Source: Candidatus Dojkabacteria bacterium
GTDB taxonomy: Bacteria; Patescibacteriota; Dojkabacteria; B142; OLB20
Assembly: GCA_030583785.1 (NCBI GenBank)
Contig: CP129475.1
Span: forward strand, 25,941 to 89,940
Length of the DNA: 64,000 nt
Direction of reading: 5' to 3'
The first letter of the stretch is position 1. Each line of letters starts with the position of its first letter. Shown here in pieces: positions 1,624-35,983 of this stretch. Under the pieces are notes generated by a model. That model was not told the DNA's origin and searched no databases. It saw nothing but the letters and a program-made list of their open reading frames with translations. The position numbers and the translations under genes are program-made.

Positions 1624-2250
1624 TTGTTTATGGAAGTAGGAAATTCATTTTTAGCTATTGTTGGTCCTGCCGGTGTAGGAAAAAGCACATCTTTCAATGC
1701 AATCTTGGATCATTTTGAGTCAAGGATTCGTGTTGTTCCAAAAGTTACAACAAGACCACCCAGAGAGAATGAAAAAGATACGAAGGCAGGTTTATCTCTA
1801 ACAGAGTTCCAAGCAGGGGTTGAATCTGGAGAAATAATACTGGCGCACCAACCATTCGGACCCGATGGTCACTGGTATGGTTATAGCCTTAATGAATTAT
1901 CTGGACAGTCTGGGCAGTTGAATATAATTGAACCTAATGTTGAACATCAGTTACCAGAATTCAAGAAAATATTTGGTGCTTCTGCATTTGTATTAGCCCT
2001 TCGCGCAGATAGAGAATACCTACGACATAATCTTTCGGAGCGAAATAGCGAAAGTCCAGAAAAAATTGAAGAAAGGTTAAGTGCAGCTTGCAGTATTAAC
2101 GATTTTATTGATAAATATTCTAACTCAGGATTAATAGATCAAGTTATTGAACTCAACTGGCACAATAGACCTAGAATGTTAGAAATTGTGTTAGGTTTGA
2201 CTGCTAGGGTGCTGAACAAAATGTCTGTCCTTCAGGGCAGATTTTGCTAG
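1624..2250 (+). CDS. gmk: Guanylate kinase-like P-loop NMP kinase
   Basis: Walker A motif GPAGVGKST, followed by VTTRPPRENE (Gmk has TTR.PR.GE), then YGYS (Gmk YGTS) and a C-terminal E.RL... motif. Confidence 0.5.
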   Translation: MFMEVGNSFLAIVGPAGVGKSTSFNAILDHFESRIRVVPKVTTRPPRENEKDTKAGLSLTEFQAGVESGEIILAHQPFGPDGHWYGYSLNELSGQSGQLNIIEPNVEHQLPEFKKIFGASAFVLALRADREYLRHNLSERNSESPEKIEERLSAACSINDFIDKYSNSGLIDQVIELNWHNRPRMLEIVLGLTARVLNKMSVLQGRFC

Positions 2251-2826: not shown

Positions 2827-3810
2827 TTGACTAAAAAAGTCCAAATAACTTATGCTGAATTTATCTACCCAATTATTGAATTTATGAATAAAATCCCTGG
2901 ATTTGTATTAATAATGTTTGCTGCATCATTGTGGGCGCTTGATGCCCTTCTAAGAACACATCTGACTTTTGCGATTCCTTCGATTTGGATTGTCTTTTTT
3001 GAGCATCTGGCAGGAGTTCTTCTTTTCCTGCCTGTTTTATATAACAGTCGATCAGTCTTTAATAAACTGAAAAAGAGAGATTGGATGATACTGCTTCTGA
3101 TGACAATTGTGAGTAGTGTCTTGGGCACCCTCTTGTTTACCGAAGCTTTAAATAAAAGCTTTGCTGTTGGCGATTTTGCTTCTCCTGTATTGTTGCAGAA
3201 ACTGCAACCCATGTTTGTAATTATGCTGTCTACGATCTTTTTAAAAGAAGTATTATCATATAGATTTCTTCTTCTGGCTGTTGTGGCCTTAATCGGCAGC
3301 TATATGATCAGTTTCGGCACAGATAGTGTCTTTCTTGATTTCAGCTCAAAGCTAGAGGTGTCCCTATTGGCAGTCGGAGCAGCAGTTGCCTGGGGAGCCG
3401 GAACGGTAATGAGTAAACATCTGCTTACAAAGGTTGATGCTGCACCTGCTACTGCTTTACGAATGCTTCTCGCTGTTCCTATTAGTTTTGCTGTTGCGTT
3501 GCTTATTGGTCAGGATTTGCAATTATCCGCAATCGGAAGCGCAGAGATCCTCAGAATTATATTGATAGCTTTATCAACTGGGGCAGTCGCAATTCTTATC
3601 TATTACAAAGGTTTGATCAAAACCAAAGCCTCTGTATCTGCTTTTGCAGAACTGGCGTTCCCAGTTGCCTCAATTTTTATAGCCATATCAGTTCTAAATC
3701 CTTACGGACAACCGCAAACTTTGACACTTGCAAATTCATTTGGAGTTATTATTCTCCTGATTTCAATTCTCTTAATAAGCACAGAAAATGAATCTAAAAA
3801 GAGCATTTAG
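2827..3810 (+). CDS. Polytopic membrane protein, EamA/DMT-type transporter-like
   Basis: About 10 predicted hydrophobic helices arranged as two repeated halves; there is no catalytic motif. Confidence 0.4.
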   Translation: MTKKVQITYAEFIYPIIEFMNKIPGFVLIMFAASLWALDALLRTHLTFAIPSIWIVFFEHLAGVLLFLPVLYNSRSVFNKLKKRDWMILLLMTIVSSVLGTLLFTEALNKSFAVGDFASPVLLQKLQPMFVIMLSTIFLKEVLSYRFLLLAVVALIGSYMISFGTDSVFLDFSSKLEVSLLAVGAAVAWGAGTVMSKHLLTKVDAAPATALRMLLAVPISFAVALLIGQDLQLSAIGSAEILRIILIALSTGAVAILIYYKGLIKTKASVSAFAELAFPVASIFIAISVLNPYGQPQTLTLANSFGVIILLISILLISTENESKKSI

Positions 3811-4543
3811 CGGGTATGTAATTGCAGGAGAAAGATTAGGTAGCAAGATTGGCTATCCAACAATCAATTTTGACCCAGAAATAATCAGTCAAAGCACAAG
3901 ACAAGGTGTTTGGGCAGCAAGTGTTGTTGTTGACGGAGATATTTACCTAGCCGCACTCTACTTTGGTCCCAAATATGTAGGTAATAAAAGTGAGCTGGTT
4001 TTAGAAATTAATATCTTAGAATATAGCGGTAGTATATATAAAAAGAGAGTCAGGGTAGAGTTGCTTAAATTTGTGCGCGAGCCGATAAAATATGACGATA
4101 TATCACTACTTAGAGAGCAAATAGGTAAGGATATTAAGCATATCGAGTTAATAACAGGATTGTTATCTAGAGAGAATATATATGCGGTCGTCGGAGTTTC
4201 TTTAGATACTGCAAAGTATGGTTATCGGGTATATAAGAGTATGTCAGATGCAGGCATAAATGTATCTGCAGTAAACCCAAAGTATAGTCAAGAACAAGGA
4301 ATTAAATTTTACAATTCGGTAGCCGACCTTAATGATAATGCCGAGGTAATCGTTTTCGTAGTTCCACCTGCTGTTGCAGAGAACATTATTCATGATAATA
4401 TCGAAGTTTTACGAAACAAACTTGTCTGGTTTCAGCCAGGATCAGAATCCGAAAATGCCTCTAAACTATGCGAAGTCAACCATATTGATTATGTACTAAA
4501 CAAATGCGTGGTGGTAGACGGATTGAGCCTGCAGTTAAGGTAG
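3788..4543 (+). CDS. Fusion of a riboflavin kinase domain with a CoA-binding (YccU-like) domain
   Basis: The N-terminus GYVIAGERLGSKIGYPTINF matches the riboflavin kinase G.V..G...G..LG(F/Y)PT(A/I)N motif. The C-terminal half IYAVVGVS...YGYRVYKSMSDAGINVSAVNPKY...VVPPAVAENI resembles the CoA_binding_2 Rossmann domain. The FAD-synthetase domain of a full RibF is absent. Confidence 0.5.
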   Translation: MNLKRAFSGYVIAGERLGSKIGYPTINFDPEIISQSTRQGVWAASVVVDGDIYLAALYFGPKYVGNKSELVLEINILEYSGSIYKKRVRVELLKFVREPIKYDDISLLREQIGKDIKHIELITGLLSRENIYAVVGVSLDTAKYGYRVYKSMSDAGINVSAVNPKYSQEQGIKFYNSVADLNDNAEVIVFVVPPAVAENIIHDNIEVLRNKLVWFQPGSESENASKLCEVNHIDYVLNKCVVVDGLSLQLR

Positions 4544-4894
4544 GTTCGAGTTGATAATCAATTATGATTGAAATTGGTCTAGACTAACTGGATTGTCTGT
4601 ATAGTCTTGTTGTATTGACTCTTCAATATCTAACCTTAAGGTTCTCGGTTAACAACACTAACATTACCTAGTAGTGGTTTTTCTATTCTTGGAGCTGCGG
4701 ATCGATGATTTTCGTATAGACCATGAGTGCTGTTTAATCCTAAGACATCAACAACCTTAGCTCTGAGTGTATCTAACAGTGTATCGTTTACAGGTCCATT
4801 ATTGCCTTCAACAAATAAAGGATTATCAAGCGTACATTGTAAGTTATTAATCATAACTTTATGTTAAGAATAATTGTTATCTAATTATAATAGA

Positions 4895-4924
4895 TAATGC
4901 ATTTTTTTACAAATATGGTAGAAT
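4895..4924 (+). promoter_or_regulatory. Candidate sigma-70 promoter with extended -10 (TGgTAGAAT) upstream of the 4948 operon
   Basis: TG at 4916-4917 and TAGAAT at 4919-4924 lie 24 nt upstream of the ATG. A weak -35 TTTTAC sits 18 nt upstream. The context is a 400-bp AT-rich intergenic region. Confidence 0.25.
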
Positions 4925-4947
4925 CTTACGATAAATAATAGATATAT

Positions 4948-6228
4948 ATGGACGAGTTCGACAGAAGAAACAATAGCGAAGCACCAGATCGATTCAGGAT
5001 AAGTGAAAAATATTCAGATGAAGAGATCTCATATCTTTCCATAGGAAATCCCGGAACTTTTCGATTTGTTCTATCTGGGCTTAGTGATCCATCTCAACTT
5101 AGAGTCCAACTAACCTTCGTAGATCCAAGATTTAGAGATAGAATGGGACCACTAGGTTACATTGGTTCTGTAATAGCAACAGAAACACAAGAAGTTGTAA
5201 ATCCAAGAATCTTTCAAGAGCTTTTCAAATCAAGGGGTGTTCCACCAATAACCTTTAAAGGAACATATTCAGAGGTGCAGTCAATTCAGGGATTAATTAC
5301 AGATGCAAATCAGGCCGGTTATGATGGCAATCGGGGAAGCGTATTCGCCTATACCGCAGATGGAGATGCACAAGATTATCAAGTTGCCGCAATGGCTCGA
5401 TTACTATTTAGGTCAGTAATTGGAGTTGCCAATAACTATCAAACACATATTCTAACTGCCTTTAATCGATCTTATGCATTGGCTAGACGGAGAAGAGAAC
5501 ATTATCGACTATTAGAAAATCAAACTGATACATTCGCTGCCTTGCCAGAAGAGGTATTGCAATCAATCTTCGCTGGTCCAATGATTGTTATGTTGAAGCG
5601 GGCCGAAGCTAAGGCAGATGTTAATCAAGCCCCTGCTGATAATAGAATTCAACCAATATTTAATCTGCATCTAGATGATTATTTCCAATTTTATTCCGAA
5701 GGCTACGAAGAAAGAAGACAAATCAATCAAAAAACATCGTTAGCAGATATTTTAAATGTAGCAATTAGTCAAGAGTTGGCCGTAGCTGGTGAAAGATACC
5801 TTCAATACACTACAACTGCAAATCGTTTATTGGAAGGCAGCGGTCCTTTAACAGAATGGGCTCGTTCTTTCCACGGCATAAGATTTGAAAAGGATATGCC
5901 TTTAGTAGTTATAGATCCTAGAGACCCGATTCTACTTACTTCGTTAATGGTTGCCTTGAAAAGAAAAGTAGATAGTGGAGATCCAATATATAGTCACCTT
6001 AGATCACCAGGTAGTATTTGGAGGGCTGTAGCAAACATAAGAAGCGAAATAATTTACTTACTTAACTCAGTATTATCGTTGAGCGGATCAAATACTATAC
6101 CCATGCTCGATGACCATGGTCTAATGCCAGGTGAGTTAGAGCACTTAGTCCATACTCAAAGTCTGACGGACGCAACTGATACTGAGCAATTACTTCTTCA
6201 GGAATACAATAGTCAATATGGAAAATGA
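4948..6228 (+). CDS. Hypothetical soluble protein (426 aa), no recognisable motif
   Basis: Long ORF with no TM segments. It is the first gene of a two-gene operon and overlaps the next gene by 11 nt. Confidence 0.5.
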   Translation: MDEFDRRNNSEAPDRFRISEKYSDEEISYLSIGNPGTFRFVLSGLSDPSQLRVQLTFVDPRFRDRMGPLGYIGSVIATETQEVVNPRIFQELFKSRGVPPITFKGTYSEVQSIQGLITDANQAGYDGNRGSVFAYTADGDAQDYQVAAMARLLFRSVIGVANNYQTHILTAFNRSYALARRRREHYRLLENQTDTFAALPEEVLQSIFAGPMIVMLKRAEAKADVNQAPADNRIQPIFNLHLDDYFQFYSEGYEERRQINQKTSLADILNVAISQELAVAGERYLQYTTTANRLLEGSGPLTEWARSFHGIRFEKDMPLVVIDPRDPILLTSLMVALKRKVDSGDPIYSHLRSPGSIWRAVANIRSEIIYLLNSVLSLSGSNTIPMLDDHGLMPGELEHLVHTQSLTDATDTEQLLLQEYNSQYGK

Positions 6229-7687
6229 ACCAAGACAACAGTATATCGATAAGCAACCTGAAGGCATGTATAGAGGAATCATAGCCAGATCTTCGAGTTT
6301 TGAAGAAGTAAAAAGAGTAATAACAGAACAGCCAAGATTTGCTAGAAGGGAGCAGGTTTCCGATGTGCAGTTAGTAGAGCGTTGGGGTGTAAGCACTAGC
6401 AGCTTAGCTCAATTCTTTGCCGAAAGAGATTATCGCGACAATAGATCAGAATTAACTGGAGTTCTTGATGGAGGACTTGAGATTCTATTCGAGACCAGAA
6501 GTTCGGTTAATGATCCTAGACAGAACAATGCATTAGTTACTTTGCAGCTAACACAAGGAGATCGGACATATTCAGTTAGTGTCAATACAGCAGAAAAACC
6601 TTATCGAGATATTGAATTTTCGCAGGTAGTGGCTCAAGCACTACAAGACAGAGTCAGTCAAAGATTCATAGTTTCTGAAGGTCGAGACGAAGAAAGTCAG
6701 GCTGAAGGGTTTGTTCCTCAGAATTCTGGTGGGATACTTGGAAATATCTCTTTACCGAGTAAGGTTGAATACTATAAGAGAGATAACCCGATAGATCATA
6801 GTAACCAAGAAAAAAAGAGGCAAGCATTTTACGATTTGTTCATGTTGGCTTTTACCAAGTTAACAATTGAATTGTACAAAGGCTTAGAACCTTCAAGGGA
6901 GGATATCATACTTCACTATCTCAGGTATTTCGATCAAATGACAGTCAGAAATATTCTGGCAAATATTGGTTTTAATGCACTAGGGGCTGCAATTATGGGA
7001 GAGTTCCCAGATGCCCGAAAGAATTTTCTAGACAGTCTTAACAGTCGAAGCGAAGAATACGAGCAAACAGAATCAAGAGAGGAAGATTACCGCTTAGATT
7101 TACCATTATTTGTAGATGAATCTTATATAGAAGACGAGGATAACTCTGTTGACGAAGTTGCTTTCCAGTTAACTTCAGATAGTGTAGTAAGAAAAGAACC
7201 CGAGGTTGGCTTCACCGATTTTGCTAGAACAAGGTTAGAGAGAATGAATATTGAAACCTTGAATATCATCAGAGAAACCGAGATGCTGCAAGACATTGCA
7301 CTACTTAATATGGAAGGAATTCAAGAATGGAGTATTAAACTTCATCGACAGTTATATGGTTCAGATAATGCCTTGCGAGAGCTTAATCCGGACGATTTGA
7401 TTATCAGACTATGTCTCTTCAAACTACTATCTGAACAGAATAGAATTCATATATTTAAAGATGCTATTGCTGCTTTAGCAATATTTATCAATAGTAGTGC
7501 ATTTCGAGGTGAGACAACACCTTATAGGAGTATTCTGCATAAGACCATAGTCTCTGGAAGCGCTGATTATCCAGACGGACACGATATCTTAACTAACCTG
7601 GATATTAAGATTGGTGTATCAGATCAACAGCGTCAGGAGTTGATAAATTTCCTTATCGAATTAACTAATAAATACCAGCAATCTTAA
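6218..7687 (+). CDS. Hypothetical soluble protein (489 aa), acidic, no recognisable motif
   Basis: Long ORF translationally coupled to the upstream gene. It contains Glu/Asp-rich segments. Confidence 0.5.
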   Translation: MENEPRQQYIDKQPEGMYRGIIARSSSFEEVKRVITEQPRFARREQVSDVQLVERWGVSTSSLAQFFAERDYRDNRSELTGVLDGGLEILFETRSSVNDPRQNNALVTLQLTQGDRTYSVSVNTAEKPYRDIEFSQVVAQALQDRVSQRFIVSEGRDEESQAEGFVPQNSGGILGNISLPSKVEYYKRDNPIDHSNQEKKRQAFYDLFMLAFTKLTIELYKGLEPSREDIILHYLRYFDQMTVRNILANIGFNALGAAIMGEFPDARKNFLDSLNSRSEEYEQTESREEDYRLDLPLFVDESYIEDEDNSVDEVAFQLTSDSVVRKEPEVGFTDFARTRLERMNIETLNIIRETEMLQDIALLNMEGIQEWSIKLHRQLYGSDNALRELNPDDLIIRLCLFKLLSEQNRIHIFKDAIAALAIFINSSAFRGETTPYRSILHKTIVSGSADYPDGHDILTNLDIKIGVSDQQRQELINFLIELTNKYQQS

Positions 7688-8129
7688 AGGTTGAGTTGTG
7701 CATAAGAACTGTATCCCCAAGTTGCTTGCCAAGTAGTTCTGCGTAATTGGTTGCGTCTACCCAGATTGTTGCCCCGATTTTAGTGGAAACAAGCTTTACC
7801 TGAGAGCCTGCCTGAACTATTGCTCGTTTAACAAGCGATCTCTTACTAAATTTTTTGAGATGTGTTTTGTAGGTAGATATATTGTTGTTGTGCAAAGAAG
7901 CCTGTGAAAGAAGTTTTAAGAATATTGGATCTGAAAATGATGGGTTAGCTTTTTTTAATTTTGATTCGATAGTGTTGAGTTTTGTTTGTTCGTTTTTTAT
8001 GAGGTTAATCAAAGTAGATCTGACCTTATATGCATTCATCGGGCATTGTTTAATAACTAATTCATCAATTAAAACGATTAAACAAAAAATCCTTACCCGA
8101 AATAAAACCAAAATTTGAGATTTGCGCAT
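7665..8129 (-). CDS. Small secreted or membrane-anchored hypothetical protein
   Basis: N-terminal hydrophobic signal-like segment MRKSQILVLFRVRIFCLIVLI. It converges on, and overlaps, the end of the 6218 gene. Confidence 0.3.
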   Translation of the reverse strand: MRKSQILVLFRVRIFCLIVLIDELVIKQCPMNAYKVRSTLINLIKNEQTKLNTIESKLKKANPSFSDPIFLKLLSQASLHNNNISTYKTHLKKFSKRSLVKRAIVQAGSQVKLVSTKIGATIWVDATNYAELLGKQLGDTVLMHNSTFKIAGIY

Positions 8130-8173: not shown

Positions 8174-8599
8174 TTGCTGAATTACGATAATACTATGTTG
8201 CTTCTATATACAGACGGAGGATCAAGAGGAAACCCAGGACCAGCAGCAATTGGTGCCGTTCTTTACTCCGAAACCCAACAATTACTAGATTTTACTGCCG
8301 AGTATAAAGGCGTACTTACCAACAATCAGGCAGAGTATCTTGGTTTGTTGGCAGGATTAGGTTTGGCAAATAAGCATGCTAACGAAAGTTTAACGGTATA
8401 TATGGACAGTGAGCTTGTAGTCAAACAGATGAAAGGTGAATATAAGGTTAAGCATCCAGATATTATTCCGCTTAAAGCAAAGGTCGATAGTCTTCTGGTC
8501 AACTTTTCGCAAGTTAATTTCGTTCATATCGAAAGAGCAAAGAATAAATTTGCAGATAAACTTGTCAATATTGCTTTAGATTCTGCTGCCAATGCGTAA
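8174..8599 (+). CDS. rnhA: Ribonuclease HI
   Basis: LYTDGGSRGNPGPAAIGAVL...NNQAEYLGLLAGL matches the RNase H catalytic core (DEDD). Confidence 0.75.
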   Translation: MLNYDNTMLLLYTDGGSRGNPGPAAIGAVLYSETQQLLDFTAEYKGVLTNNQAEYLGLLAGLGLANKHANESLTVYMDSELVVKQMKGEYKVKHPDIIPLKAKVDSLLVNFSQVNFVHIERAKNKFADKLVNIALDSAANA

Positions 8600-11504: not shown

Positions 11505-12290
11505 ATGACTAAACCAGTTATTGTTGTTTTGGTGGTGGGTCTTGTTGTGCTTTGTTGCTGTGTTGTATCAGTGCTTCTTCTTGCTGTGGGTGGTGTCAGT
11601 GTATATCTTCCGTTTTCTTCGTCAGATAGTATCACTTACTTAGATACAAAAACTGATAAAGTAACAATCTCACAGGCATATGTCTCAAGTCTAGTTACCG
11701 GAGAGAGCAGTAATAATGACTACAATAACGATGTTGTTCATTATTATCATAAGGTAGCTCTTAATCTTATGACCGTTGACGAGATCGACGAGGTTAAAGT
11801 TTATCAAATAGAATTGCAACGAAATTCAAATCAGGGTGAAGTGAAGATTATTCATCCAAAGCATACGCCGCAATTTGAAAGTACAAATCACTATTTCGGA
11901 CCTTATGGCGAAGATCCTGCCTTTACCGAAGTTAATAACGACGGTGACAGGTTTACACTTAAAAGTGTAGATAAAGACTTTATGAGTCTATATTATGACG
12001 AGGTCGGAACAAACATGGCCTTAATTAACTTTTCAATCTTTGTTCACGATTTTTGCAGATTCGACTATGAAAAGATTTTTGATGAGACAGGAATGATTGA
12101 TAGCACACAATATCTGGAATATTGTAATACAAATGCTAGTGCGTTAGACGAAGAGCTTGATTTCGTTGTTGAGGTCAAATTCAAAGATGGATCGATCGCT
12201 GTAAAAAATTTCTCCTTTGACATAGATGGAGATGCATTACTTGCTGGATATGCAAGTGTTTCGTCTGAATTAGTTGGAACTCAATTCTAG
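11505..12290 (+). CDS. Membrane-anchored hypothetical protein
   Basis: N-terminal TM segment VIVVLVVGLVVLCCCVVSVLLLAVGG followed by a soluble domain. Confidence 0.4.
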   Translation: MTKPVIVVLVVGLVVLCCCVVSVLLLAVGGVSVYLPFSSSDSITYLDTKTDKVTISQAYVSSLVTGESSNNDYNNDVVHYYHKVALNLMTVDEIDEVKVYQIELQRNSNQGEVKIIHPKHTPQFESTNHYFGPYGEDPAFTEVNNDGDRFTLKSVDKDFMSLYYDEVGTNMALINFSIFVHDFCRFDYEKIFDETGMIDSTQYLEYCNTNASALDEELDFVVEVKFKDGSIAVKNFSFDIDGDALLAGYASVSSELVGTQF

Positions 12291-12816: not shown

Positions 12817-13304
12817 CAGTTTGTGCATGCCGGAAGTTTTGCCGAAATCCAGCTTTGTATTCCCCCATTTAACTCGACGACATTAGTAAATCCCAAATCT
12901 TGCATAATCTTTAGAGCGCCGCTGCTTCTGTTTCCAGAATTACAATAGAGTTTATAAGCCTGATTGCGATCAAGTTTTTCTAGCTGGTTTTTAAAGTCAG
13001 ATCTGTAGTAGTCGATATTAACTGCCCCTGCAATTCTACCGCTATTGTATTCTTGGAGTGTTCGAATATCCAGAATCACCGCACCCTCTTCTTGAACTTC
13101 AGAACTAAATTCGGATGCAGAAACAGAGGTGATGCCGGTTTTGTTATTTGAAGATCCATTAGCCATGATAATTGCTATAAGAAGAAAGAAAACAGTTAAG
13201 GCAAGAATGATTGGTTTTTTCATCAGTAAAGAAATTAGAAAGATAAATACAGAATAGCACAAACTTCTATAAATTATAGAGGGACATTTTAATATATAAA
13301 ACAT
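12813..13304 (-). CDS. Secreted or membrane-anchored rhodanese-domain sulfurtransferase
   Basis: Signal/TM N-terminus, then ILDIRTLQEYNSGRIAGAVNIDY...YKLYCNSGNRSSGA...GGIQSW, which matches the rhodanese fold with an active-site Cys in CNSGNRS. Confidence 0.65.
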   Translation of the reverse strand: MFYILKCPSIIYRSLCYSVFIFLISLLMKKPIILALTVFFLLIAIIMANGSSNNKTGITSVSASEFSSEVQEEGAVILDIRTLQEYNSGRIAGAVNIDYYRSDFKNQLEKLDRNQAYKLYCNSGNRSSGALKIMQDLGFTNVVELNGGIQSWISAKLPACTNC

Positions 13305-13366
13305 ATGGAGAAACTAGACAAAGAGGTGCAAATGTTATATAATTCATATATAGTTAAGATGCTAGA

Positions 13367-13972
13367 ATGTATATAGTATGTCCATTGCCCGATAAAAGCC
13401 TGGATGCAGCACATAATTTAATGTCTTCAAATGGCCCATTCTCGAGTCGAAGAACCTATGTCAGTCATACTTTCTATGACAAGGCAAATTTTAGAGAAGG
13501 ACCAGGTGGCTTCGTTTATGTCTGCAAATCGCCTGTTTTGCTTGGTGTTAATATTCATCTACCTGGTTCCAACATAGTTGAATCAATTATTCGTCCTTTT
13601 CAGAACGAAAGAGGCGCTCGATTTTTTTCACTGCCAGAAGATCCAGAGATAGTTGCTTCATTGGAACAGAATGGTGCAGAGTTTACAGTTGCAGATCGTT
13701 CTTTGCTATTAACTAGTGATGTGATGAATAGCTTCCATCTTTCTCTCAGAACAGGTGTTCAGGAAGATAAATTAAGAGATCCATCACTACTGATTTTCGA
13801 ACAGAATAACCGACCTAGTTTTGAGGTTCTTCTTTGGATGACACCTGAAGGAGAAGTTAGAGACACGAACAGATTGTCTGAGAAAGAGATTGATTATCTC
13901 AATTATAGGTACGATCTTTACATACAAGGTTTACGAGAGGAACAGATAAGACAAGGTTTTCTAAATAGATAG
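13367..13972 (+). CDS. Hypothetical protein
   Basis: ORF only. The start codon is uncertain. Confidence 0.3.
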   Translation: MYIVCPLPDKSLDAAHNLMSSNGPFSSRRTYVSHTFYDKANFREGPGGFVYVCKSPVLLGVNIHLPGSNIVESIIRPFQNERGARFFSLPEDPEIVASLEQNGAEFTVADRSLLLTSDVMNSFHLSLRTGVQEDKLRDPSLLIFEQNNRPSFEVLLWMTPEGEVRDTNRLSEKEIDYLNYRYDLYIQGLREEQIRQGFLNR

Positions 13973-13995
13973 AGAAAAACTCCTTTACCTTAAAA

Positions 13996-14757
13996 TTGAA
14001 AATAATGGATGATCAATACTACTTGATAAGCAGAGAAATAATATTTCCGCAGTTCCCAGGCTCACATCGTGAGACATTTGAAGACCTGAGAGAATTAAGC
14101 ACATCCGGTATCGGAGCATTTGGGAGTAATTTCAATCGAAATCTTGTGATGCCTGAAGGTTCTTATGATGACCCGGAAGTAAGTGCATTCCTCGATGATT
14201 ATTTTCGGGATCCATTTTTTCATGCAACCCTTTTTCGCTTAGATAGTTATCGTCCTGAGGAATGGGATATGGAATTCTCAGGTTTATACTGTGAACCTAA
14301 ATATAAAGCCTCTGGAGGCATTAATACAGAATGGAGTGCAGTAAGGTATCAAGTGATTACGAATTCTTTGGATGGAATATTCAAATACCCCAGGGGTCAC
14401 TATTCATATGATTCTCTCAAACATACTCGAGAGATATATGGACAACCTTTCAATCTATCAGATACTAATGACTCCGACACTCAACCCGTAATCATCCTTC
14501 CTAAATTGTTACAATGTAAGAAGGAATTAGTGACTTTAAGATTGCCGGTTATAAATCCATTAGTTTTAAAAGTTGATCCTAGGAGAGACCTTCGAGATCT
14601 AACAAGTTTAATAATTTCTATGAGAGAAGGTGAACCAAATATTGACGATATGTACGCACAATTAATTAGTACTGAGTATACAATACCAACATTTTTTGAG
14701 GGTCCACCAAGACCACCTTTCAGAGAATATCCTGTTACTCCTGGATTCTGGAATTGA
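13996..14757 (+). CDS. Hypothetical protein
   Basis: ORF 24 nt downstream of the previous gene. No recognisable motif. Confidence 0.4.
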   Translation: MKIMDDQYYLISREIIFPQFPGSHRETFEDLRELSTSGIGAFGSNFNRNLVMPEGSYDDPEVSAFLDDYFRDPFFHATLFRLDSYRPEEWDMEFSGLYCEPKYKASGGINTEWSAVRYQVITNSLDGIFKYPRGHYSYDSLKHTREIYGQPFNLSDTNDSDTQPVIILPKLLQCKKELVTLRLPVINPLVLKVDPRRDLRDLTSLIISMREGEPNIDDMYAQLISTEYTIPTFFEGPPRPPFREYPVTPGFWN

Positions 14758-14763
14758 CTTGAA

Positions 14764-16008
14764 TTAAAACAGCACGCTGATAAGCGGAATGTACATCTCC
14801 TTTGAGCTTAGTCCTCCATGTAATGATTTCTTGGTAATTTTGTGCTGTGCAGAGTTTATGTATGCACAGTGTCCTTCTTTGCCAATGATTGCTACATGTC
14901 CAAATCTTCGTTTAAAGATTTCGCTTTCTTTAAACAGTCCAAGGTTCTGCATATCTTGGTAGCTTAAGACATGATATTGTTCACCAAGTTTGTCTTTAAG
15001 TCTGTCGATAATCGCCTTAGTATCGTCTTTTGCATCAAGCCTTAAAAAGAAGTCTCTCGGAGTGCCAAGTGGATTATTTTGTCCAGGATATCTTGCAATT
15101 TGATTGATTTTTATGTCTGGAAAAAGATCATCGAGATAGACTGTTTGCGTATCATAAACTGCAGTCTGGCCATGATCTGCACAAACCAGCACCAAGGTGT
15201 TGGGATTATTCTTTATTCTACTAAGAAAGTTTTGCAGATGCCAAAGTGTAGATTTTAATTCTGCGTAAGTATATTCGCTATCGATTCTGTATTTGTGGGA
15301 AATTGTATCGATGCCTTCGTAGTAGAAGTATGTAAAACCCTTGGTTGAGTTTACTACTACCTCTTTGAGTTTTGTAAAGCCTTCGCTAAGCGTTGCATAA
15401 CCGATCGGATCATTAGATCCTTTGTAATAATGATTGAAGGCAGAAGGGGCGAGAATATTCGGTACTATCGCCTGAGTTGATAGTCCGTAAGCCTCAATTT
15501 TTTCAAACACATTTGATTGAGGAAGAATTTGGTCAATAGCGTAATCATCGAGCAGAGTTTCTGGCCTCGTATCTGTAGGTCTGTTCAGCAAAAAAGGAGA
15601 GATTATTTCGTCGATTTCGTCATGGTACATGTGCCATTCATAAATACCGTGCTCATAAACTGGTAGGCCGGTATAAACACTTGTTGCATGAGCAGAAGTA
15701 GTAGCCGGAAACTGTGATGTTAGTTTGCTGATTTGGTGATTGTAATCATCGAGAAAGGCATATTCATCGATGTATTTTTCTAAGAAATACCAGGCGAAAT
15801 TATCTAAGAATATTAGGATTACATTATCGATTTGTGGACTACTTAGATATTCAGATTCAGGAAGTGTCTCGTGAGCATCTTCAACTCCAAGAATCTTGTT
15901 GACAGTCGGCATGATATTAGCAAACGAAAGTTTTTCTTCGTATGCTGGCCTTATAATATCATCTGCACATTCTGTATTGACCAGTAATTTATTAGTATGA
16001 ATGTTCAT
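14764..16008 (-). CDS. Alkaline-phosphatase-superfamily enzyme (type I phosphodiesterase / nucleotide pyrophosphatase-like)
   Basis: N-terminal LIFLDNFAWYF (metal-binding D, G/N) and VLVCADHGQT (the DHG motif of the AP/NPP core). At 414 aa it is too short for a PglZ protein. Confidence 0.5.
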   Translation of the reverse strand: MNIHTNKLLVNTECADDIIRPAYEEKLSFANIMPTVNKILGVEDAHETLPESEYLSSPQIDNVILIFLDNFAWYFLEKYIDEYAFLDDYNHQISKLTSQFPATTSAHATSVYTGLPVYEHGIYEWHMYHDEIDEIISPFLLNRPTDTRPETLLDDYAIDQILPQSNVFEKIEAYGLSTQAIVPNILAPSAFNHYYKGSNDPIGYATLSEGFTKLKEVVVNSTKGFTYFYYEGIDTISHKYRIDSEYTYAELKSTLWHLQNFLSRIKNNPNTLVLVCADHGQTAVYDTQTVYLDDLFPDIKINQIARYPGQNNPLGTPRDFFLRLDAKDDTKAIIDRLKDKLGEQYHVLSYQDMQNLGLFKESEIFKRRFGHVAIIGKEGHCAYINSAQHKITKKSLHGGLSSKEMYIPLISVLF

Positions 16009-19711: not shown

Positions 19712-20485
19712 ATGAATACAGAAAATAGCTACAAAAAGTTACGGAAGTGGAATGCAATTATGGCTGTCCTCCACTTTGTCCAAGGAATTGCAATGCTTGC
19801 TATTAGCAGAGATTTTAGCATCCCTCTAACAACTACTTACTTAGACTTCAACTTGCAAGCTAACACGATATTGCCTGTGACAAATGAGGCAATGCAACTG
19901 AATCTGGGCCAGTTTATTTCTGTATTTCTATTCTTATCAGCTTTTTTTCACTTCCTACTTATCTTACCTGGAATATATGAATGGTATGTTAAGAATCTGA
20001 AGAATAAGATTAACTATCTAAGGTGGATTGAATACGCATTTAGCTCTTCGGTTATGATTGTAGCTATCGCAATTCTTTGCGGAATGTTTGATCTTCCGAG
20101 TTTGATTCTCATCTTTGGGCTAAACGCCATGATGAACCTGTTTGGCTTGATGATGGAGCTACATAACCAAACAACGAAAAAGACTAACTGGACTGCGTTC
20201 ATCTTCGGTACAATCGCAGGAATCCTACCTTGGATTGTAATAGCCATGTACTTCTTTGGAGCAGTGTCGTCCGTAGGTACCAACATCCCAACCTTTGTAT
20301 ATGCAATTCTTGTATCGATCTTTCTGTTCTTCAATTGTTTTGCAATCAATATGTTTTTGCAGTACAAACAAGTCGGTCCGTGGAAGGATTATCTTTTTGG
20401 GGAAAGGGTTTATATTCTGTTAAGTCTGATAGCAAAATCAGCATTGGCTTGGCAAATATTCTCAGGTACTTTGAGGCCGATGTAA
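19712..20485 (+). CDS. Heliorhodopsin
   Basis: 257 aa with 7 TM. The sequence is near-collinear with the heliorhodopsin family, with blocks RKWNAIMAVLHFVQGIAMLAIS, LIFGLNAMMNLFGLMMELHNQTT and GERVYILLSLIAKSALAWQIFSGTLRP. It carries H80, the E107 counterion (RWIEY) and the TM7 Lys242 (LIAKS), matching the H80/E107/K241 triad reported for HeR 48C12. Confidence 0.75.
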   Translation: MNTENSYKKLRKWNAIMAVLHFVQGIAMLAISRDFSIPLTTTYLDFNLQANTILPVTNEAMQLNLGQFISVFLFLSAFFHFLLILPGIYEWYVKNLKNKINYLRWIEYAFSSSVMIVAIAILCGMFDLPSLILIFGLNAMMNLFGLMMELHNQTTKKTNWTAFIFGTIAGILPWIVIAMYFFGAVSSVGTNIPTFVYAILVSIFLFFNCFAINMFLQYKQVGPWKDYLFGERVYILLSLIAKSALAWQIFSGTLRPM

Positions 20486-26319: not shown

Positions 26320-26955
26320 ATGGCTCCACACCTGACACCGGCGCAGTCTACTGTGCTTAAGTATATTAAAAACCATATTCTGGCCAGAGGTTATGCGCCA
26401 ACTTTGTCTGAACTGCAAATCTCGCTTGGGGGTATTACTAAAAGAGCTGTGGTTAAACATCTCGAGGCACTAGAACGAAAAGGCCATATTCTCAGATCCA
26501 GCAAACCCAGGGGTATAACTTTAGTAGAAGATACCGGCAGTCCAGTAATGAGCATGAATATTCTCGGTTATGCCAATGCTGGTGCACCTTTAGTTTATGC
26601 AGAAGAACAAAAAATTGGCGTACTGCGTATAGATAAAAGTCTGCTTCCTGTAACAAAAAATGTATTTGCGCTAATCATTAAAGGTGACTCTATGAATAGG
26701 CGCAAGCTTAACGGTATACCATTATCCAACGGCAATTATGCCATTGTTGCCAACAATCAAGAAGTTCGCAATGGTGATGTTGTTTTAGCAATTATAGATG
26801 GTTGTGCCACCATAAAATCTTACCGTCACGATGGCCGAATGGTGGTTCTTTATCCAGAATCCACCAATTCTTTACACAGACCTATATACCTAAGCAGTGA
26901 TAACGAAGCGAGCATTTATGGCAAAGTAATCTCGGTTTTGCGTAATCCGGTTTAA
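26320..26955 (+). CDS. lexA: LexA repressor
   Basis: N-terminal wHTH (TPAQSTVLKYIKNHILARGYAPTLSELQ...HLEALERKG). The C-terminal S24 domain has the catalytic Ser in IKGDSMN and the catalytic Lys in TIKSY. Confidence 0.8.
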   Translation: MAPHLTPAQSTVLKYIKNHILARGYAPTLSELQISLGGITKRAVVKHLEALERKGHILRSSKPRGITLVEDTGSPVMSMNILGYANAGAPLVYAEEQKIGVLRIDKSLLPVTKNVFALIIKGDSMNRRKLNGIPLSNGNYAIVANNQEVRNGDVVLAIIDGCATIKSYRHDGRMVVLYPESTNSLHRPIYLSSDNEASIYGKVISVLRNPV

Positions 26956-26973
26956 TAGCGTATACATCAAATT

Positions 26974-27294
26974 ATGTCCGTAACAACATCTCCGGTTGGG
27001 TTTGCTTCACCGGCAGAAGATGTAATGGAGCGCAGTCTCGATTTACACGAACTGCTGGTAAAGCACCCTGCTGCCACTTTCTTTGTGCGTGTTAGTGGCA
27101 ATCAATTAGCAGTAAAGGGAATCTTCACAGACGATATTCTTATCGTAGATAGATCCCTAAAACCTACGATTAATTCTTTGATAGTAGCTATTATCGAGGG
27201 TGACTTTGTACTTGGCTATTTTAATTCATTTTCTAAAAAAGATAATCTCGAAGTGTGGGGAGTTGTGGTTTCGCTTATCAGGGAGAATCTATAA
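26974..27294 (+). CDS. umuD: UmuD'-like protein (S24-fold, catalytically inactive, N-terminally truncated)
   Basis: GFASPAEDVMERSLDLHELLVKHPAATFFVRVSGNQLAVKGIFTDDILIVDRS aligns residue-for-residue with E. coli UmuD 25-85 ([53 protein letters not shown]). GDSM is GNQL here, and the KK of UmuD 97-98 is absent. Confidence 0.65.
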   Translation: MSVTTSPVGFASPAEDVMERSLDLHELLVKHPAATFFVRVSGNQLAVKGIFTDDILIVDRSLKPTINSLIVAIIEGDFVLGYFNSFSKKDNLEVWGVVVSLIRENL

Positions 27295-27296
27295 AA

Positions 27297-28574
27297 ATGA
27301 TTGCCGTAGTTGATTGCAACAATTTTTTTGTCTCCTGTGAGTTAGTTTTTCACCCAGAGCTTAAAGGGCATCCCGTTATGGTTGCATCAAACAATGACGG
27401 ATGCATTGTTGCCCGTTCGCCCGAAGTTAAGGCCTTGGGGATCCCAATGGGAGCACCTGCATATCAATGGAAGGATTTGATCAGGCAGCATGACATCAAA
27501 ATATTTTCAGGCAATTTTGCTCTTTACGGAGATCTATCCAAGCGAGTAATGCAGATTCTTCTGCAAGCTGCTCCTACAGTAGAGATATATTCGATAGATG
27601 AAGCCTTCTTAGAATTTCCATCTTTGACAAACGAAATGATCATCTCTATTTGTAAAAACCTAAGAAGTCGGTTATTACAGAGTACAGGCATCCCTGTAAG
27701 TATTGGTATCGGAAAAACAAAAACATTGGCCAAGATTGCCGTCGAGATAGCAAAAAAGAATTCTGAATTTCAGGGCGTGTTTTCTGCCGAAAGCGACAAA
27801 TTTGATTCATTTCTTGCTCATATGCCAACCTCTGACATCTGGGGCATCGGTCGCAAATTGAGCGAACGCCTAAAGTGTTTTGGTATCTATACGGCTAAAG
27901 ATCTCAAACAAGCTCAGGACATAATTATCAGAAAATGCACGCATCTCCCCGGAATTCGTACCACATATGAATTACGAGGTATTAAATGCATAGAACTGCA
28001 AACTGCCCATTCTTCGCGTAAAGGCATAACAGCTTCTCGTTCATTTGGTCATCCTGTATCTACTTATACCGAAATGGCTGAAGCGATTGCTCTTTATACA
28101 ACCAGAGCCGCCGAAAGACTGCGTTCTGATAAATCAATTGCATCTTGGATACAAATCTGCATCGTTACCAATTATTTTCGTAAAGATCAAAAACAATATG
28201 TCGGATTTGACTCGGGACTTCTGCTTCAGCCAACAGCAGTTACTTCAGAAATAATTAAAACAGCTCATATATTATTAAAGCGTATCTTTAAAGAAGGATT
28301 CATATATAAAAAGGCTATTGTCAACTTGGGCGGAATCACTCCGGCATCTCAGCAACAAATAAGTATGCTCGCAGACATAAAAACCTCCCAGCGTCTTTCA
28401 AGACTAATGACGGCAGTAGATAAAATCAACAGGAAGGCAGGACGAAACAAAATCCATTATGCGTCTTGCGGTATATTAAAAAAGAAAAGTTGGCATCCAA
28501 AATCAGAAATGCTTTCGCGAAGGTATACAACAAGTTGGCAAGAACTGCCGGTCGTAAAAGCAATCTATAGCTAA
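27297..28574 (+). CDS. umuC: Y-family DNA polymerase (UmuC/DinB, Pol V catalytic subunit-like)
   Basis: MIAVVDCNNFFVSCE... matches the UmuC/DinB N-terminus (ALxDCNxFYxSCE). The likely start is the ATG 2 nt after the umuD stop. The listed ORF starts earlier, at 27255. Confidence 0.75.
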   Translation: MIAVVDCNNFFVSCELVFHPELKGHPVMVASNNDGCIVARSPEVKALGIPMGAPAYQWKDLIRQHDIKIFSGNFALYGDLSKRVMQILLQAAPTVEIYSIDEAFLEFPSLTNEMIISICKNLRSRLLQSTGIPVSIGIGKTKTLAKIAVEIAKKNSEFQGVFSAESDKFDSFLAHMPTSDIWGIGRKLSERLKCFGIYTAKDLKQAQDIIIRKCTHLPGIRTTYELRGIKCIELQTAHSSRKGITASRSFGHPVSTYTEMAEAIALYTTRAAERLRSDKSIASWIQICIVTNYFRKDQKQYVGFDSGLLLQPTAVTSEIIKTAHILLKRIFKEGFIYKKAIVNLGGITPASQQQISMLADIKTSQRLSRLMTAVDKINRKAGRNKIHYASCGILKKKSWHPKSEMLSRRYTTSWQELPVVKAIYS

Positions 28575-32503: not shown

Positions 32504-35500
32504 TTGAAAACCATAAAAAAAATATTTGCAGTTATCGGAATCTTGCTAATAGCAGGGGTTTCAGTTTTAGTTATTGCAAACCTTTCACAAGACCTTTCAC
32601 CAGAACAGAGTAGTGCAAATTTTGAATATGGCTTGATTGCAAAACAGAAGTCTGAATCCAGTCAAATTAAATTAACAACTGGTGATAGGGTGGATGTAGA
32701 AGTCCTCATGCTTGCTCCACAATCTGATCAGGGCAATCCAGAATCTGCTGAGGTAGTCATAGAATATAATCCTTCTCAATTGGAATTTGTAGAGATTTCT
32801 GAAGCAAGCGATGTATTAATGATTGGTCCAGAGAGCGATCCGACTAGAGGTCGCATCATCGTTGATTTTGTCAAACAAGGTCAGGGTGGATTTGTTGGGG
32901 ATAGTCTAAACCTAAAACTATTAGCAACGGCTTCTTTCACTCTTCGCTCCTCGGAACTTGATAATGTAAAAATCTCCTTTTCATCTGACTCAAAAGTAGG
33001 GGATAAAATGATTTCGCAATTAAATGCTGACGAAGAATTTAGTGTTGTTGTCTCAGGTAGTCTCCCTGTTTGTGGTAATAGCAATTGTGAATCAGGAGAA
33101 ACACTAATATGCCCACAGGACTGCAAAACAGTACCTACCCCATTAGCCAATAATATAAATACTCCTGAAGTAGATCCTAAATGCTCAGAGCTTGGCATTA
33201 ACTATGCTTCAGTTGTTCCGGTTGGAGACAATTGGCACGAGAAGGCTCAAAGCCTTGGTATGGGTTATACCCTAGAGATTGTAGGCAATTCTGAACAAAA
33301 ACTGGGTGTATTGCAGTCATTTCGTGCAGCAATGGCTAGAGGATTAACGCCAATTCTTCGTATATGTTATGGAAGTTATTGTTCATTTTCAAATGTTAAT
33401 ACATACATCAACTTTGTTAATGATCTAGCAGATGAACTAGCAAATGATGGAACTTTCTATATAATAGCAGGGCCGAATGAACCGTTGTCTGAGAATTGGT
33501 TGGGGAATATTGTTGGTGATCCAATATCTACGGCACAAAAAATAACACCATACATGAATGCTGTAATCGATGGTGTAAGTAAACCTAATGTTAAAATCCT
33601 CTCACCGGTTTTTAATACTACTAACGATAATTTTCCTTTTCTGGTTAGTGAGATGAAAATGCGAGGAGCTAAATTCAATCAACTAGATGGTATTGCTGGC
33701 AATGCATATAATCTTAAAGGCTATTCACTGGGTGAAACCCTTTCAGATTTCGTTACCAGAATGCGTGCCCAAGGCTTTTCTGCAAATGATATATATTTAA
33801 CTGAAGTAGGAGCATTTGAATCAGATAAAAATAATGGATGGACAGGTACAAAAGTCCCTCATCAAGAAGCCTTGCAGAATCTTCGTAACGAAATAGTAAA
33901 GCTTAGAAATGATAATAAAGTGAAAGCATATCTGTTGTTTAACTCTTTTGGGACAAATTCCGATTCCAATTTTGACTATAATGTCTTCTCTGATGATGAG
34001 TTAAATTATCTGGTTGGACCAGAATGTGTTAATGAAGATAATTCTCCATCCTCGACTCCCACAGCCACACCGTCGCCAACTATATCTAGCGTTCCTTTAT
34101 GTCGATATCTTTCAACTCAAGCAAGAGTCCAACGCTCGGTTACTGAACCTTGGGTTGATAATCTAGAGATAAGTTGTGAGGAAAGCTTTTCTGTCGGGTC
34201 GTTTCATGATAATAACGGTCAGTTTGCAAATGATACAATCATTAATGTCATCGATCCTCAAAACAGGACAAGTAATCTTAAGAACGGAGATAGCTTCAGG
34301 ACATCTGTCCCAGGCGACTATCGAGTTGTTGTAACTACAAACGGACAAGAAGGTGTAAATTGCCGAGATGAAGCAAAAGTAAGCTGCTCAAGCACCACAA
34401 CTCCGACACCCTGCCCAATAGAGCCAGTATGTTCAGCAGGTTATGATTTAGTAACGATACCACCATTTGATGGAGTCGGCTGTACAGTTTATGAATGTGT
34501 ACCTAGTTCAACAACTTTGACCTGTCAATCAGACAGATTTGTCGATAGCTTTTCTGCCCAGGGGATTAATAATTTTATCTGGAAAACAAGCGAAAAAGGT
34601 GGCGTAAGAACCGCGAATGGACATCTGTTAATCTCTGTTCCTTCTGGATCTTTTCAAAATAACTATGTAGAGACTAGATCTTTCATGCAAGGGAATTTTC
34701 AAATAACTGCTGATATCGTTGGACTTTCCACAGATTATAAAAATAGTGGAACTGCAGAATTAGGAGTAGGAAGTCCACTTGGACATGCGCACCTAGGCTT
34801 GAATCAAGGACACGATGGAAAACAATATCTCGAAGCGAATATTAGAATTGGTGAAAATTGGCTGGGTTCTAAGACATTAGATTTGGGTAATGTAAAACCA
34901 CCTGTGAAACTAATAATCTCTAGGTTCGGATCAACAGTATCTATGAGTGCAGAATATGGGGGAACTACCAAGCAAGTTGCAATTTTCAATAATGTTTACC
35001 TAGGGAATGTAAATGCTCAGCTTTACTCGTTTACAAAAGATGACAATCCAGCTATTAATGCAGCGTTTGATAATTACACTTATGGATGTTCTTCTGATCC
35101 CGGCTCGGTTACGGGTGTTCCAACTCCGGTTCCACCAACGCCACGACCAACTTGCCCAGTTGATCTAAAGGTCTGTCCTAGTGGATTTACAGTTAGTAGA
35201 GATCCATTTAATAACTGCGAATTCCGAACCTGTCCAATTGTGAGTTCAGTTTGCGGTAACAATATTTGCGAGACTGATGAAGAAATTAACAAATCTTGTT
35301 CTATTGATTGTGCACCAACAGTTACCCCGACTCCGACTCAGGCTCCAAAATGTACCTCGCATGAATATACACAGTGGTCTGAATGTATTAATGGATACAG
35401 AACTCGTAAATTGATATCTTCTTTACCAGAAGGATGTAAGCAGGGAGTTAGTCCAATTTTCGGCGAGGTCTGTGGTTCTGGATCATTAATATGCACCACA

Positions 35501-35983
35501 GATACAAAAGCATGTGATGACGGGACATGGGTTAGCAGGGATCCTTCAAACAATTGTGAATTTATGCAATGTCCAGGTCAAACAGAGTGTGTACAGCCAC
35601 CAGCTTGTGCAAATCCTGGGCCTGGTGAAGCAAGATGTTATCTCTCTCCAGAAACAAATTGGTGTAGCTTGGAATGTGAACCTATTCCTGCTTGTGCATT
35701 GGATTCGGCAGAACAGAGATGTTCTTTAGCTCCAGGTGTCAATTATTGTCAAGCTTTAGACCAAAATAGCGTAGACGAAAAGACAGCTAATGCCTGTAAG
35801 GCGGATTATGATGGCAATGGAACTATAGATATTAATGATTTTGCAGTATTTGCAAAAAATTACAAAAAAGAGAATATCGATTGTTCGCTGGACATTGTTA
35901 ATAATGACTGCAAACTGGATATCTCTGATTTTAGATTATTAGGATACATTTATGGTCAAGAAAATGCTTGTAAGAACAATTAG
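32504..35983 (+). CDS. Large secreted multi-domain protein: N-terminal anchor/signal, GH clan-A (GH5-like) domain, S/T/P linkers, beta-sandwich (ConA/LamG-like) domain, three Cys-rich repeats, C-terminal dockerin
   Basis: N-terminal TM KIFAVIGILLIAGVSVLVIA. IIAGPNEPLSENW (GH5 acid/base NEP) and ~110 aa later IYLTEVGAF (GH5 nucleophile TE.G). Linkers NSPSSTPTATPSPT, SSTTTPTPCP and TPVPPTPRPT. Dockerin duplicated Ca-binding loop DYDGNGTIDINDFAVF ... DIVNNDCKLDISDFRLL. Confidence 0.6.
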   Translation: MKTIKKIFAVIGILLIAGVSVLVIANLSQDLSPEQSSANFEYGLIAKQKSESSQIKLTTGDRVDVEVLMLAPQSDQGNPESAEVVIEYNPSQLEFVEISEASDVLMIGPESDPTRGRIIVDFVKQGQGGFVGDSLNLKLLATASFTLRSSELDNVKISFSSDSKVGDKMISQLNADEEFSVVVSGSLPVCGNSNCESGETLICPQDCKTVPTPLANNINTPEVDPKCSELGINYASVVPVGDNWHEKAQSLGMGYTLEIVGNSEQKLGVLQSFRAAMARGLTPILRICYGSYCSFSNVNTYINFVNDLADELANDGTFYIIAGPNEPLSENWLGNIVGDPISTAQKITPYMNAVIDGVSKPNVKILSPVFNTTNDNFPFLVSEMKMRGAKFNQLDGIAGNAYNLKGYSLGETLSDFVTRMRAQGFSANDIYLTEVGAFESDKNNGWTGTKVPHQEALQNLRNEIVKLRNDNKVKAYLLFNSFGTNSDSNFDYNVFSDDELNYLVGPECVNEDNSPSSTPTATPSPTISSVPLCRYLSTQARVQRSVTEPWVDNLEISCEESFSVGSFHDNNGQFANDTIINVIDPQNRTSNLKNGDSFRTSVPGDYRVVVTTNGQEGVNCRDEAKVSCSSTTTPTPCPIEPVCSAGYDLVTIPPFDGVGCTVYECVPSSTTLTCQSDRFVDSFSAQGINNFIWKTSEKGGVRTANGHLLISVPSGSFQNNYVETRSFMQGNFQITADIVGLSTDYKNSGTAELGVGSPLGHAHLGLNQGHDGKQYLEANIRIGENWLGSKTLDLGNVKPPVKLIISRFGSTVSMSAEYGGTTKQVAIFNNVYLGNVNAQLYSFTKDDNPAINAAFDNYTYGCSSDPGSVTGVPTPVPPTPRPTCPVDLKVCPSGFTVSRDPFNNCEFRTCPIVSSVCGNNICETDEEINKSCSIDCAPTVTPTPTQAPKCTSHEYTQWSECINGYRTRKLISSLPEGCKQGVSPIFGEVCGSGSLICTTDTKACDDGTWVSRDPSNNCEFMQCPGQTECVQPPACANPGPGEARCYLSPETNWCSLECEPIPACALDSAEQRCSLAPGVNYCQALDQNSVDEKTANACKADYDGNGTIDINDFAVFAKNYKKENIDCSLDIVNNDCKLDISDFRLLGYIYGQENACKNN

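Follow-up and report, generated by a model that had tools for sequence, protein, structure and literature searches.

An Islet of Three Orphan Genes in a Variable Slot of a Candidatus Dojkabacteria Genome

The Locus

The subject of this analysis is a 3.1 kb block in the genome of a Candidatus Dojkabacteria bacterium, within a stretch of 64,000 nucleotides (nt) of contig CP129475.1 (positions 25,941 to 89,940 of the forward strand). This stretch is called the window, and positions below are counted from its first letter. The block holds two large overlapping genes, here termed A and B, and a small divergent gene, orf72; it stands between the gene for a flavokinase–CoA-binding fusion (RibF) and a convergent gene, orf154. 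The Dojkabacteria, or WS6, are a lineage within the Candidate Phyla Radiation (CPR), or Patescibacteria. The features of the block are as follows, with protein lengths in amino acids (aa):

4544..7664: the whole islet, or slot, from the RibF/CoA-binding stop to the orf154 stop; 3.1 kb, with orf72, A, and B
4636..4854, minus strand: orf72, 72 aa, divergent from A; QY330_00125 / WKZ28001.1 in GenBank
4855..4947: divergent promoter region of orf72 and A, 93 nt, 17% GC, with promoter-like sites on both strands
4864..4891, plus strand: promoter-like TTAAGA-16-TATAAT, 10/12 matches, a consensus match only
4884..4912, minus strand: promoter-like TTGTAA-17-TATAAT, 10/12 matches, facing orf72, a consensus match only
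4916..4924, plus strand: extended -10-like TGGTAGAAT, 24 nt upstream of the A start, read from the sequence
4948..6228, plus strand: gene A, 426 aa, ATG start, an orphan protein; QY330_00130 / WKZ28002.1
6218..6228, plus strand: overlap of A and B, 11 nt, ATGGAAAATGA, from the A stop to the B start
6218..7687, plus strand: gene B, 489 aa, ATG start, an orphan protein; QY330_00135 / WKZ28003.1
7665..7687: convergent overlap of B and orf154, 23 nt, in which the last 7 codons and the stop of B are antisense to the C-terminus of orf154 (…KIAGIY, then stop)

The A protein is 100% identical both to WKZ28002.1, from the closed 1.17-Mb genome of Candidatus Dojkabacteria QY330, and to KXK09899.1, from the candidate division WS6 bacterium OLB21, in which B has 490 aa. 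An earlier note on this DNA, made from the letters alone, had described two frames of 426 and 489 codons overlapping by 11 nt, and both are present. It had also described the proteins as soluble and without transmembrane segments, which agrees with maximal 19-residue Kyte–Doolittle means of 1.48 (A) and 1.33 (B), in neither of which is there a transmembrane-like segment. No signal peptide was seen on inspection of the N-termini. Both proteins are acidic, with isoelectric points of 5.3 (A) and 4.8 (B), and the acidic stretch that the note had singled out in B, EEYEQTESREEDYRLDLPLFVDESYIEDEDNS, lies in the central part of that protein. No paralog of A or B is encoded in the window, nor are the two paralogous to one another. 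At its 3' end, it is B that runs into the end of a pre-existing gene, since the C-terminus of orf154 is conserved in two relatives, OLB20 and L007 (see below).

The stretch from 4544 to 4947 had been taken to be free of genes and the longest non-coding stretch in the window. It is neither empty nor, in all likelihood, the longest: it holds orf72, which is annotated in GenBank, is called by gene callers in every related assembly (with 73 aa in the sister strain L001), and lies in a frame whose coding potential far exceeds that of the other five; and 538 nt elsewhere, 60392..60929, contain no open reading frame (ORF) of at least 120 aa. The real intergenic DNA at the islet comes to only 92 nt (4544..4635) and 93 nt (4855..4947). 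A structured RNA gene in 4544..4947 was considered and rejected: Rfam gave no match at E <= 1, the fold z-scores of -0.67 and -1.36 are not unusually stable, and the covariation term of -0.65 kcal/mol counts as no covariation. The extended -10 claimed for this stretch, TGGTAGAAT, was found.

Absence of Detectable Homologs

A, B, and orf72 match no Pfam-A or NCBIfam family at E <= 0.1, and PHROGs contains nothing for them below E = 0.05. In PADLOC-DB 2.0, B and orf72 have no match, and the only one for A, ZorA (E = 0.027, 10.8 bits over 59 residues), counts as noise. A word-indexed search of 5.8 billion clusters with A and B recovered only the species' own alleles, and an exhaustive phmmer search over 1.84 billion representatives, for which the query was a concatenation of A and B, returned only A and B themselves. 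A sequence search of the PDB gave nothing below E = 0.1 for A and B, the matches to KRas and to a portal protein being noise; orf72 has no match there either. Against 50,697 phage records, tblastn with A and B found no match at E <= 1, and IMG/VR scans with the two proteins were negative.

Structure prediction adds little to this. Single-sequence AlphaFold2 models of A and B have a mean predicted local distance difference test score (pLDDT) of 33.6 and 33.3, respectively, and are unusable because no alignment depth could be obtained. A Foldseek comparison of these low-pLDDT models with the PDB, which gave E >= 0.1 and template-modelling scores <= 0.12, was disregarded as meaningless. Among the titles and abstracts listed as matches in the Dojkabacteria literature, none concerns A, B, or orf72.

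Taken at the level of sequence, A and B are taxonomically restricted orphans, with no homolog detectable outside the species' own alleles. The absence of a recognisable domain, from which the earlier note had started, holds across Pfam, NCBIfam, PHROGs, PADLOC, the PDB, and phmmer, and neither an assigned housekeeping role nor homology to structural proteins has emerged.

Evidence for Genuine and Native Genes

The absence of homologs raises the question of whether these frames are genes. A and B remain open for 426 and 489 codons in DNA of 39% GC. Their GC fractions (0.39 and 0.38) are those of the window (mean 0.389 ± 0.020), the likelihood of their synonymous codons lies inside the window range, and their coding log-odds are positive in frame (0.213 for A, 0.222 for B) and negative in all other frames. 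Composition and codon use, which the earlier note had wished to see compared with flanking genes, are therefore native to the window. A Shine–Dalgarno-like core precedes only 3 of the 58 window genes, so the lack of one before A is nothing unusual here.

The frames are also maintained among strains. Every assembly that covers the whole gene has it intact (18/18 for A, 16/16 for B), and the sole length change in B is an in-frame indel of one codon. The exact RibF protein is present on contigs from many independent samples, and each displayed context of it contains the trio of 72, 426, and 489–490 aa. The length of the open frames, their native codon use, and the conservation of the promoter region (see below) show that A and B are genuine genes, for which expression is predicted; within the species, the block has gone to fixation and is intact.

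The Slot in Relatives

The question of whether the pair is accessory or core was approached through the flanking genes. With the LCP-family protein encoded downstream of the islet as the query, a scan of the GTDB species representatives returned one relative, WS6 bacterium OLB20 (L006). Its flanks are syntenic by tblastn on both sides: the regulator (45% identity), NUDIX (47%), EamA (58%), and RibF (35–45%) genes, and the orf154 (63%), RNase H (60%), and LCP (68%) genes. Between them, the OLB20 slot measures 2.1 kb and contains three ORFs: one of 71 aa on the minus strand and then, beyond an AT-rich gap, one of 419 aa on the plus strand and one of 139 aa. None of these ORFs has significant similarity to orf72, A, or B in BLASTP, nor in Smith–Waterman local and global alignments with shuffles (z <= 3.3 over 21 comparisons). 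A metagenome scan with an alignment of the conserved orf154 found a further relative, L007/L008, in which the CoA-binding gene and orf154 meet stop to stop, 14 nt apart, and the slot is empty. Three other homologs of the CoA-binding protein (P0004, P0007, and P0009) were tried as synteny anchors and set aside, as they belong to unrelated organisms and different contexts.

Since the slot is empty in L007/L008 and filled with unrelated ORFs in OLB20, the islet is accessory above the species level; within the species, it is fixed, every fully covered assembly having the block intact. The presence or absence of the pair in related genomes, which the earlier note had wished to see examined, is thereby answered, and its description of A and B as a unit distinct from the conserved flanking genes stands.

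The blocks in the window and in OLB20 have the same order and strands, with small proteins of 72 and 71 aa and large ones of 426 and 419 aa. Moreover, the 93-nt promoter region (17% GC) and its 101-nt OLB20 counterpart are collinear in alignment, with blocks that include TAATTATA, TTTT-CAAAT-TG, and ATAATAG-TATATAT. This local alignment scores 31; of 1000 dinucleotide shuffles, 14 scored as high, and the best of 112 AT-rich tiles taken from the window as controls scored 25. Nowhere else in the window is the equivalent region of OLB20 matched as well as at 4855..4947. This similarity is a suggestive, not conclusive, sign of shared ancestry. A single ancestral module, whose proteins have diverged beyond recognition, is somewhat preferred to independent insertions at the same place.

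Evolutionary Rates within the Species

Four strain haplotypes were compared: the window, L001, L009 (which is OLB21), and L012; they are 97–98% identical over 8.5 kb. The numbers of polymorphic codons, nonsynonymous to synonymous, and the corresponding ratios of nonsynonymous to synonymous polymorphism (pN/pS) are:

A: 25 to 5, pN/pS 1.59
B: 43 to 27, pN/pS 0.37
orf72: 34 to 2, pN/pS 2.3
LCP: 16 to 60, pN/pS 0.07
RNase H: 5 to 15, pN/pS 0.10
orf154: 1 to 6, pN/pS 0.06

By Fisher tests, A differs clearly from LCP (p = 4e-9) and B from the core genes taken together (p = 2e-7), and orf72 lies above the neutral expectation (binomial p = 0.006). The three proteins of the islet show either weak constraint on their sequences or diversification.

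The changes are also clustered. Over orf72, the window and L001 agree in 169 of 225 aligned columns (~75%), as against ~97% in the surrounding region, and the indels that separate them, of 3 and 6 nt, are in-frame. Directly beside this divergence hot spot, the promoter region 4855..4947 is identical at 92 of 93 positions between the same two strains. The replacements in A are often radical (K21E, V75E, T78K, L242R, and Y253D), and adjacent pairs of nonsynonymous changes are more numerous in A than expected (5 against 1.4, p = 0.009). In B, there is a variable patch at codons 437–441.

Several independent assemblies (L012–L014) break at the hypervariable segment of orf72, at about window positions 4581 and 4844. 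These breaks are consistent with divergent alleles that co-exist and confuse the assembler.

The Favoured Explanation

The explanation favoured here, with moderate confidence, is that orf72, A, and B are a lineage-restricted orphan islet of three genes and ~3.1 kb, which occupies a variable slot between conserved convergent genes and for which genetic conflict is the likeliest role. A and B would be expressed from one transcript. The stop of A and the start of B overlap in ATGGAAAATGA, as expected of a coupled two-protein complex, and these 11 nt suggest that the two are translated in a coupled manner; AGGAA occurs 15–19 nt upstream of the B start codon. The two proteins are predicted to be cytoplasmic and to act together, and orf72 may be co-regulated with them through the shared promoter region. 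The block of the same layout in OLB20 is probably the same ancestral module. As regards the conflict, defence against phages or mobile elements, or an addiction-like module, would be the likeliest forms. Such a role can only be surmised from the accessory location, the orphan status, and a pN/pS of at least 1, a combination typical of such genes, and no biochemical mechanism can be assigned to the islet from these data.

This explanation departs in part from that of the earlier note, which had proposed a novel two-component system, for example, one for defence, an effector with its chaperone, or a phage-derived pair. A and B do form one overlapping unit, but the unit has three genes, including the hypervariable orf72. 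None of the three suggested identities found support. For a defence role, there is no PADLOC match, and for an effector–chaperone pair, there is no positive evidence. A phage origin fares no better: there is no match in PHROGs, no integrase or transposase was found at the islet, the only flanking repeats are short ones at the level of chance, the nearest tRNA gene is not adjacent to the islet (it is at 21239), and the composition is native.

Comparison with Known Systems

The closest parallel is with the orphan genes that occupy variable slots in CPR/Patescibacteria genomes. Like these, the islet has no homolog outside one species-level lineage, lies between conserved syntenic genes whose intervening content varies among relatives, and combines a raised pN/pS with native composition in a window where many other ORFs are equally unannotatable. 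It differs from them in three respects. The evidence is unusually complete, in that 1.84 billion representatives were searched exhaustively; the layout of a small minus-strand gene and a large plus-strand gene, with a similar promoter, recurs in OLB20 without protein similarity; and one of its members, orf72, changes faster than synonymous sites.

Defence islets of the kind catalogued by PADLOC and DefenseFinder are also small operons that occupy variable slots between core genes, are absent from close relatives, and evolve fast, and the A/B block, like them, is without housekeeping annotation. However, no enzymatic domain typical of such systems was found in it, and it has no defence or mobile genes as neighbours; nor is it variably present within the species, being fixed in all strains.

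Type II toxin–antitoxin systems offer a second comparison, since the islet has a small gene of ~70 aa beside larger ones and a compact shared regulatory region. In the islet, however, orf72 diverges from A and B and is not co-operonic with them, and 426 and 489 aa are far above the size of a typical toxin. No toxin–antitoxin family in Pfam, NCBIfam, PHROGs, or PADLOC matches A, B, or orf72.

Diversity-generating retroelements (DGRs) are common in the CPR, and the localised hypervariability in orf72 and in the N-terminal 60% of A resembles that of DGR targets. Within the window, however, no template was found, 4560..4860 and 4948..5720 having no repeat beyond chance matches of 12–16 nt. No reverse transcriptase is nearby (the RVT_3 match belongs to the 141-aa RNase H protein), and the changes are a mixture of transitions and transversions (28:19 in orf72 and 11:14 in A, as totals and not per base).

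Evidence against the Favoured Explanation and Its Rivals

A number of observations weigh against the favoured explanation. The pN/pS of A is compatible with neutrality (binomial p = 0.31), so that relaxed constraint explains A as well as positive selection does. Polymorphism is almost absent from codons 257–426 of A and from the first ~56 codons of B; since synonymous changes are absent there too, this low diversity is attributed to a shared recent haplotype and is no sign of constraint. Among motifs of defence, toxin, nuclease, ATPase, or other kinds, none was significant in A, B, or orf72. The neighbours (NUDIX hydrolase, EamA transporter, RibF, RNase H, LCP protein, RibD_C, and rhodanese) make this a housekeeping neighbourhood, not a defence island. 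The promoter region resembles that of OLB20 only modestly (shuffle p ~0.014), and each of the two is extremely rich in AT. Finally, the groupings of the flanking genes conflict and would allow either a gain or a loss of the islet: orf154 groups the window with OLB20 (63% against 53–54%), and the CoA-binding domain groups OLB20 with L007 (50% against 36–44%).

The orphan status, too, carries less weight than it might. No Pfam match exists for 17 of the 40 window ORFs that were scanned, about 40%. Even the RibF–CoA-binding fusion has no full-length relative in the 5.8 billion clusters, its best non-self match being 43% identical over half its length. The orphan status is partly a sampling effect, inflated because the lineage is poorly sampled, and the lack of domains is less striking than it first sounds. 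The islet is best described as a well-documented case of a common phenomenon and not as a clear new system.

It is therefore necessary to consider that A, B, and orf72 may be ordinary lineage-specific cytoplasmic proteins under weak constraint, with no part in conflict (scaffolding, regulatory, or involved in CPR-specific cell biology). They would drift fast since only a general fold or composition matters, and they would be orphans as a result of sparse sampling. This possibility, although rather unlikely, accommodates much of what was observed: the native composition, the fixation of the block, intact in every assembly of the species, the A ratio that is not significantly above neutral, the neighbouring housekeeping proteins that are also without close relatives, and the Pfam-negative ~40% of window ORFs, which include one of 1159 aa and several neighbours with a raised pN/pS of 0.22–0.41. 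It is difficult, however, to square a housekeeping function with a slot that is empty in L007 and filled by unrelated or unrecognisable ORFs in OLB20 when the flanks are conserved, and orf72 changes faster than the local synonymous rate.

A bolder version of the favoured explanation, which must be regarded as quite unlikely, is that the slot is a conserved "cassette site" in Dojkabacteria for a new kind of conflict module, made up of a divergently transcribed hypervariable protein of ~70 aa and one or two large cytoplasmic proteins. The regulatory region would persist at such a site and the proteins would diversify beyond recognition between sister lineages. If true, this would mean a new defence or addiction family specific to ultra-small CPR bacteria.

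It is improbable that the islet is the decaying remnant of an old insertion (a mobile element, a prophage fragment, or other selfish DNA), in which the ORFs happen to be open and the protein sequence is no longer maintained. Such decay would account for ratios of about 1.6 (A) and 2.3 (orf72), for the even distribution of the A changes over the three codon positions (10, 9, and 6), for the location in a variable slot, and for the way in which B runs into the antisense of the orf154 end without a terminator region of its own. On the other hand, at least 16 assemblies and 3–5 alleles show no frameshift or stop over the 2.75 kb, all indels being in-frame; B is under purifying selection (0.37); the promoter region is conserved at 92/93 positions; the composition is fully ameliorated, and no integrase, transposase, att-like repeats, or adjacent tRNA was found; and PHROGs, the phage records, and IMG/VR contain no phage or viral homologs.

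Bacteria of the CPR depend on hosts, this ultra-small one probably included, and a lineage-restricted, fast-evolving islet with clustered radical substitutions could encode effector-like factors for episymbiosis that co-evolve with the host cell, which is similarly improbable given that the proteins have no signal peptide or transmembrane segment, no adjacent secretion-system genes, and no similarity to known effectors in Pfam, NCBIfam, PHROGs, PADLOC, or the PDB.

The Neighbourhood

The genes around the slot are as follows:

3788..4543, plus strand: flavokinase–CoA-binding (RibF) fusion, directly upstream of the slot
7665..8042/8129, minus strand: orf154, a conserved gene between B and rnhA, overlapping the 3' end of B by 23 nt
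8174..8599: RNase H gene (rnhA), encoding a 141-aa protein with an RVT_3/RNase_H match

The riboflavin kinase that had been recognised upstream from the letters alone is this RibF fusion. The rnhA gene that had been placed downstream is indeed an RNase H gene, but orf154 intervenes, so that it is not the immediate neighbour; an LCP-family gene is also found downstream. The RibF–CoA-binding fusion is apparently unique to this species: in its place, OLB20 has two separate overlapping ORFs of 129 and 135 aa (L006 4406..5174), and L007 has a stand-alone CoA-binding gene (1751..2146). The start of orf154 is probably Met30, at position 8042, which gives a protein of 125 aa, as in OLB20 and L007, where it has 124 aa in both. 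It is a strongly conserved Dojkabacteria protein (pN/pS 0.06) with no match in Pfam or the PDB. A likeness of orf154 to the C-terminal domain of GreA was considered and dropped, as the Pfam and PDB searches did not support it.

Another presence/absence difference lies beside the slot. In OLB20, a 500-aa protein with hydrophobic C-terminal segments is encoded between orf154 and rnhA (L006 7833..9335, plus strand); a homolog 54% identical to it is found in L007 (1..1146, minus strand), and it is absent from the window. Within the window, a second strain-variable islet was found at 13271..14766, with two ORFs that have no Pfam match (13367..13972, 201 aa, and 13996..14757, 253 aa) and no counterpart in L001, where 16 nt replace about 1.5 kb. 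Strain diversity peaks sharply a second time (pi 0.128 per 100 nt) at 12076..12176, at the 3' end of a gene without Pfam match (11505..12290).

Further away, two large ORFs were recorded, one of 1159 aa at 32504..35983 (plus strand), without Pfam match, and one of 1856 aa at 49386..54956 (minus strand). A heliorhodopsin gene is present at 19712..20485 (plus strand; Pfam PF18761, E = 3.7e-100), in the genome of an ultra-small CPR bacterium. Finally, at 26320..28574, a gene for a LexA-like repressor (26320..26955, plus strand) is followed by one for a Y-family (ImpB/UmuC-type) polymerase (27255..28574, plus strand), which together look like a pair of the SOS-mutagenesis type.

Implications

In this genome, a large protein without domains is the norm and not the exception, as ~40% of the ORFs show, and the comparison of synteny and of populations can separate real, maintained orphan genes from annotation noise. 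If it is true that the blocks in the window and in OLB20 have a common origin, the pair shows how quickly genes may become unrecognisable when the flanks stay 36–68% identical. If the islet is a functional module for conflict or for interaction with a host, A, B, and orf72 would define protein families without known relatives, in a phylum whose biology is almost wholly inferred from genomes.

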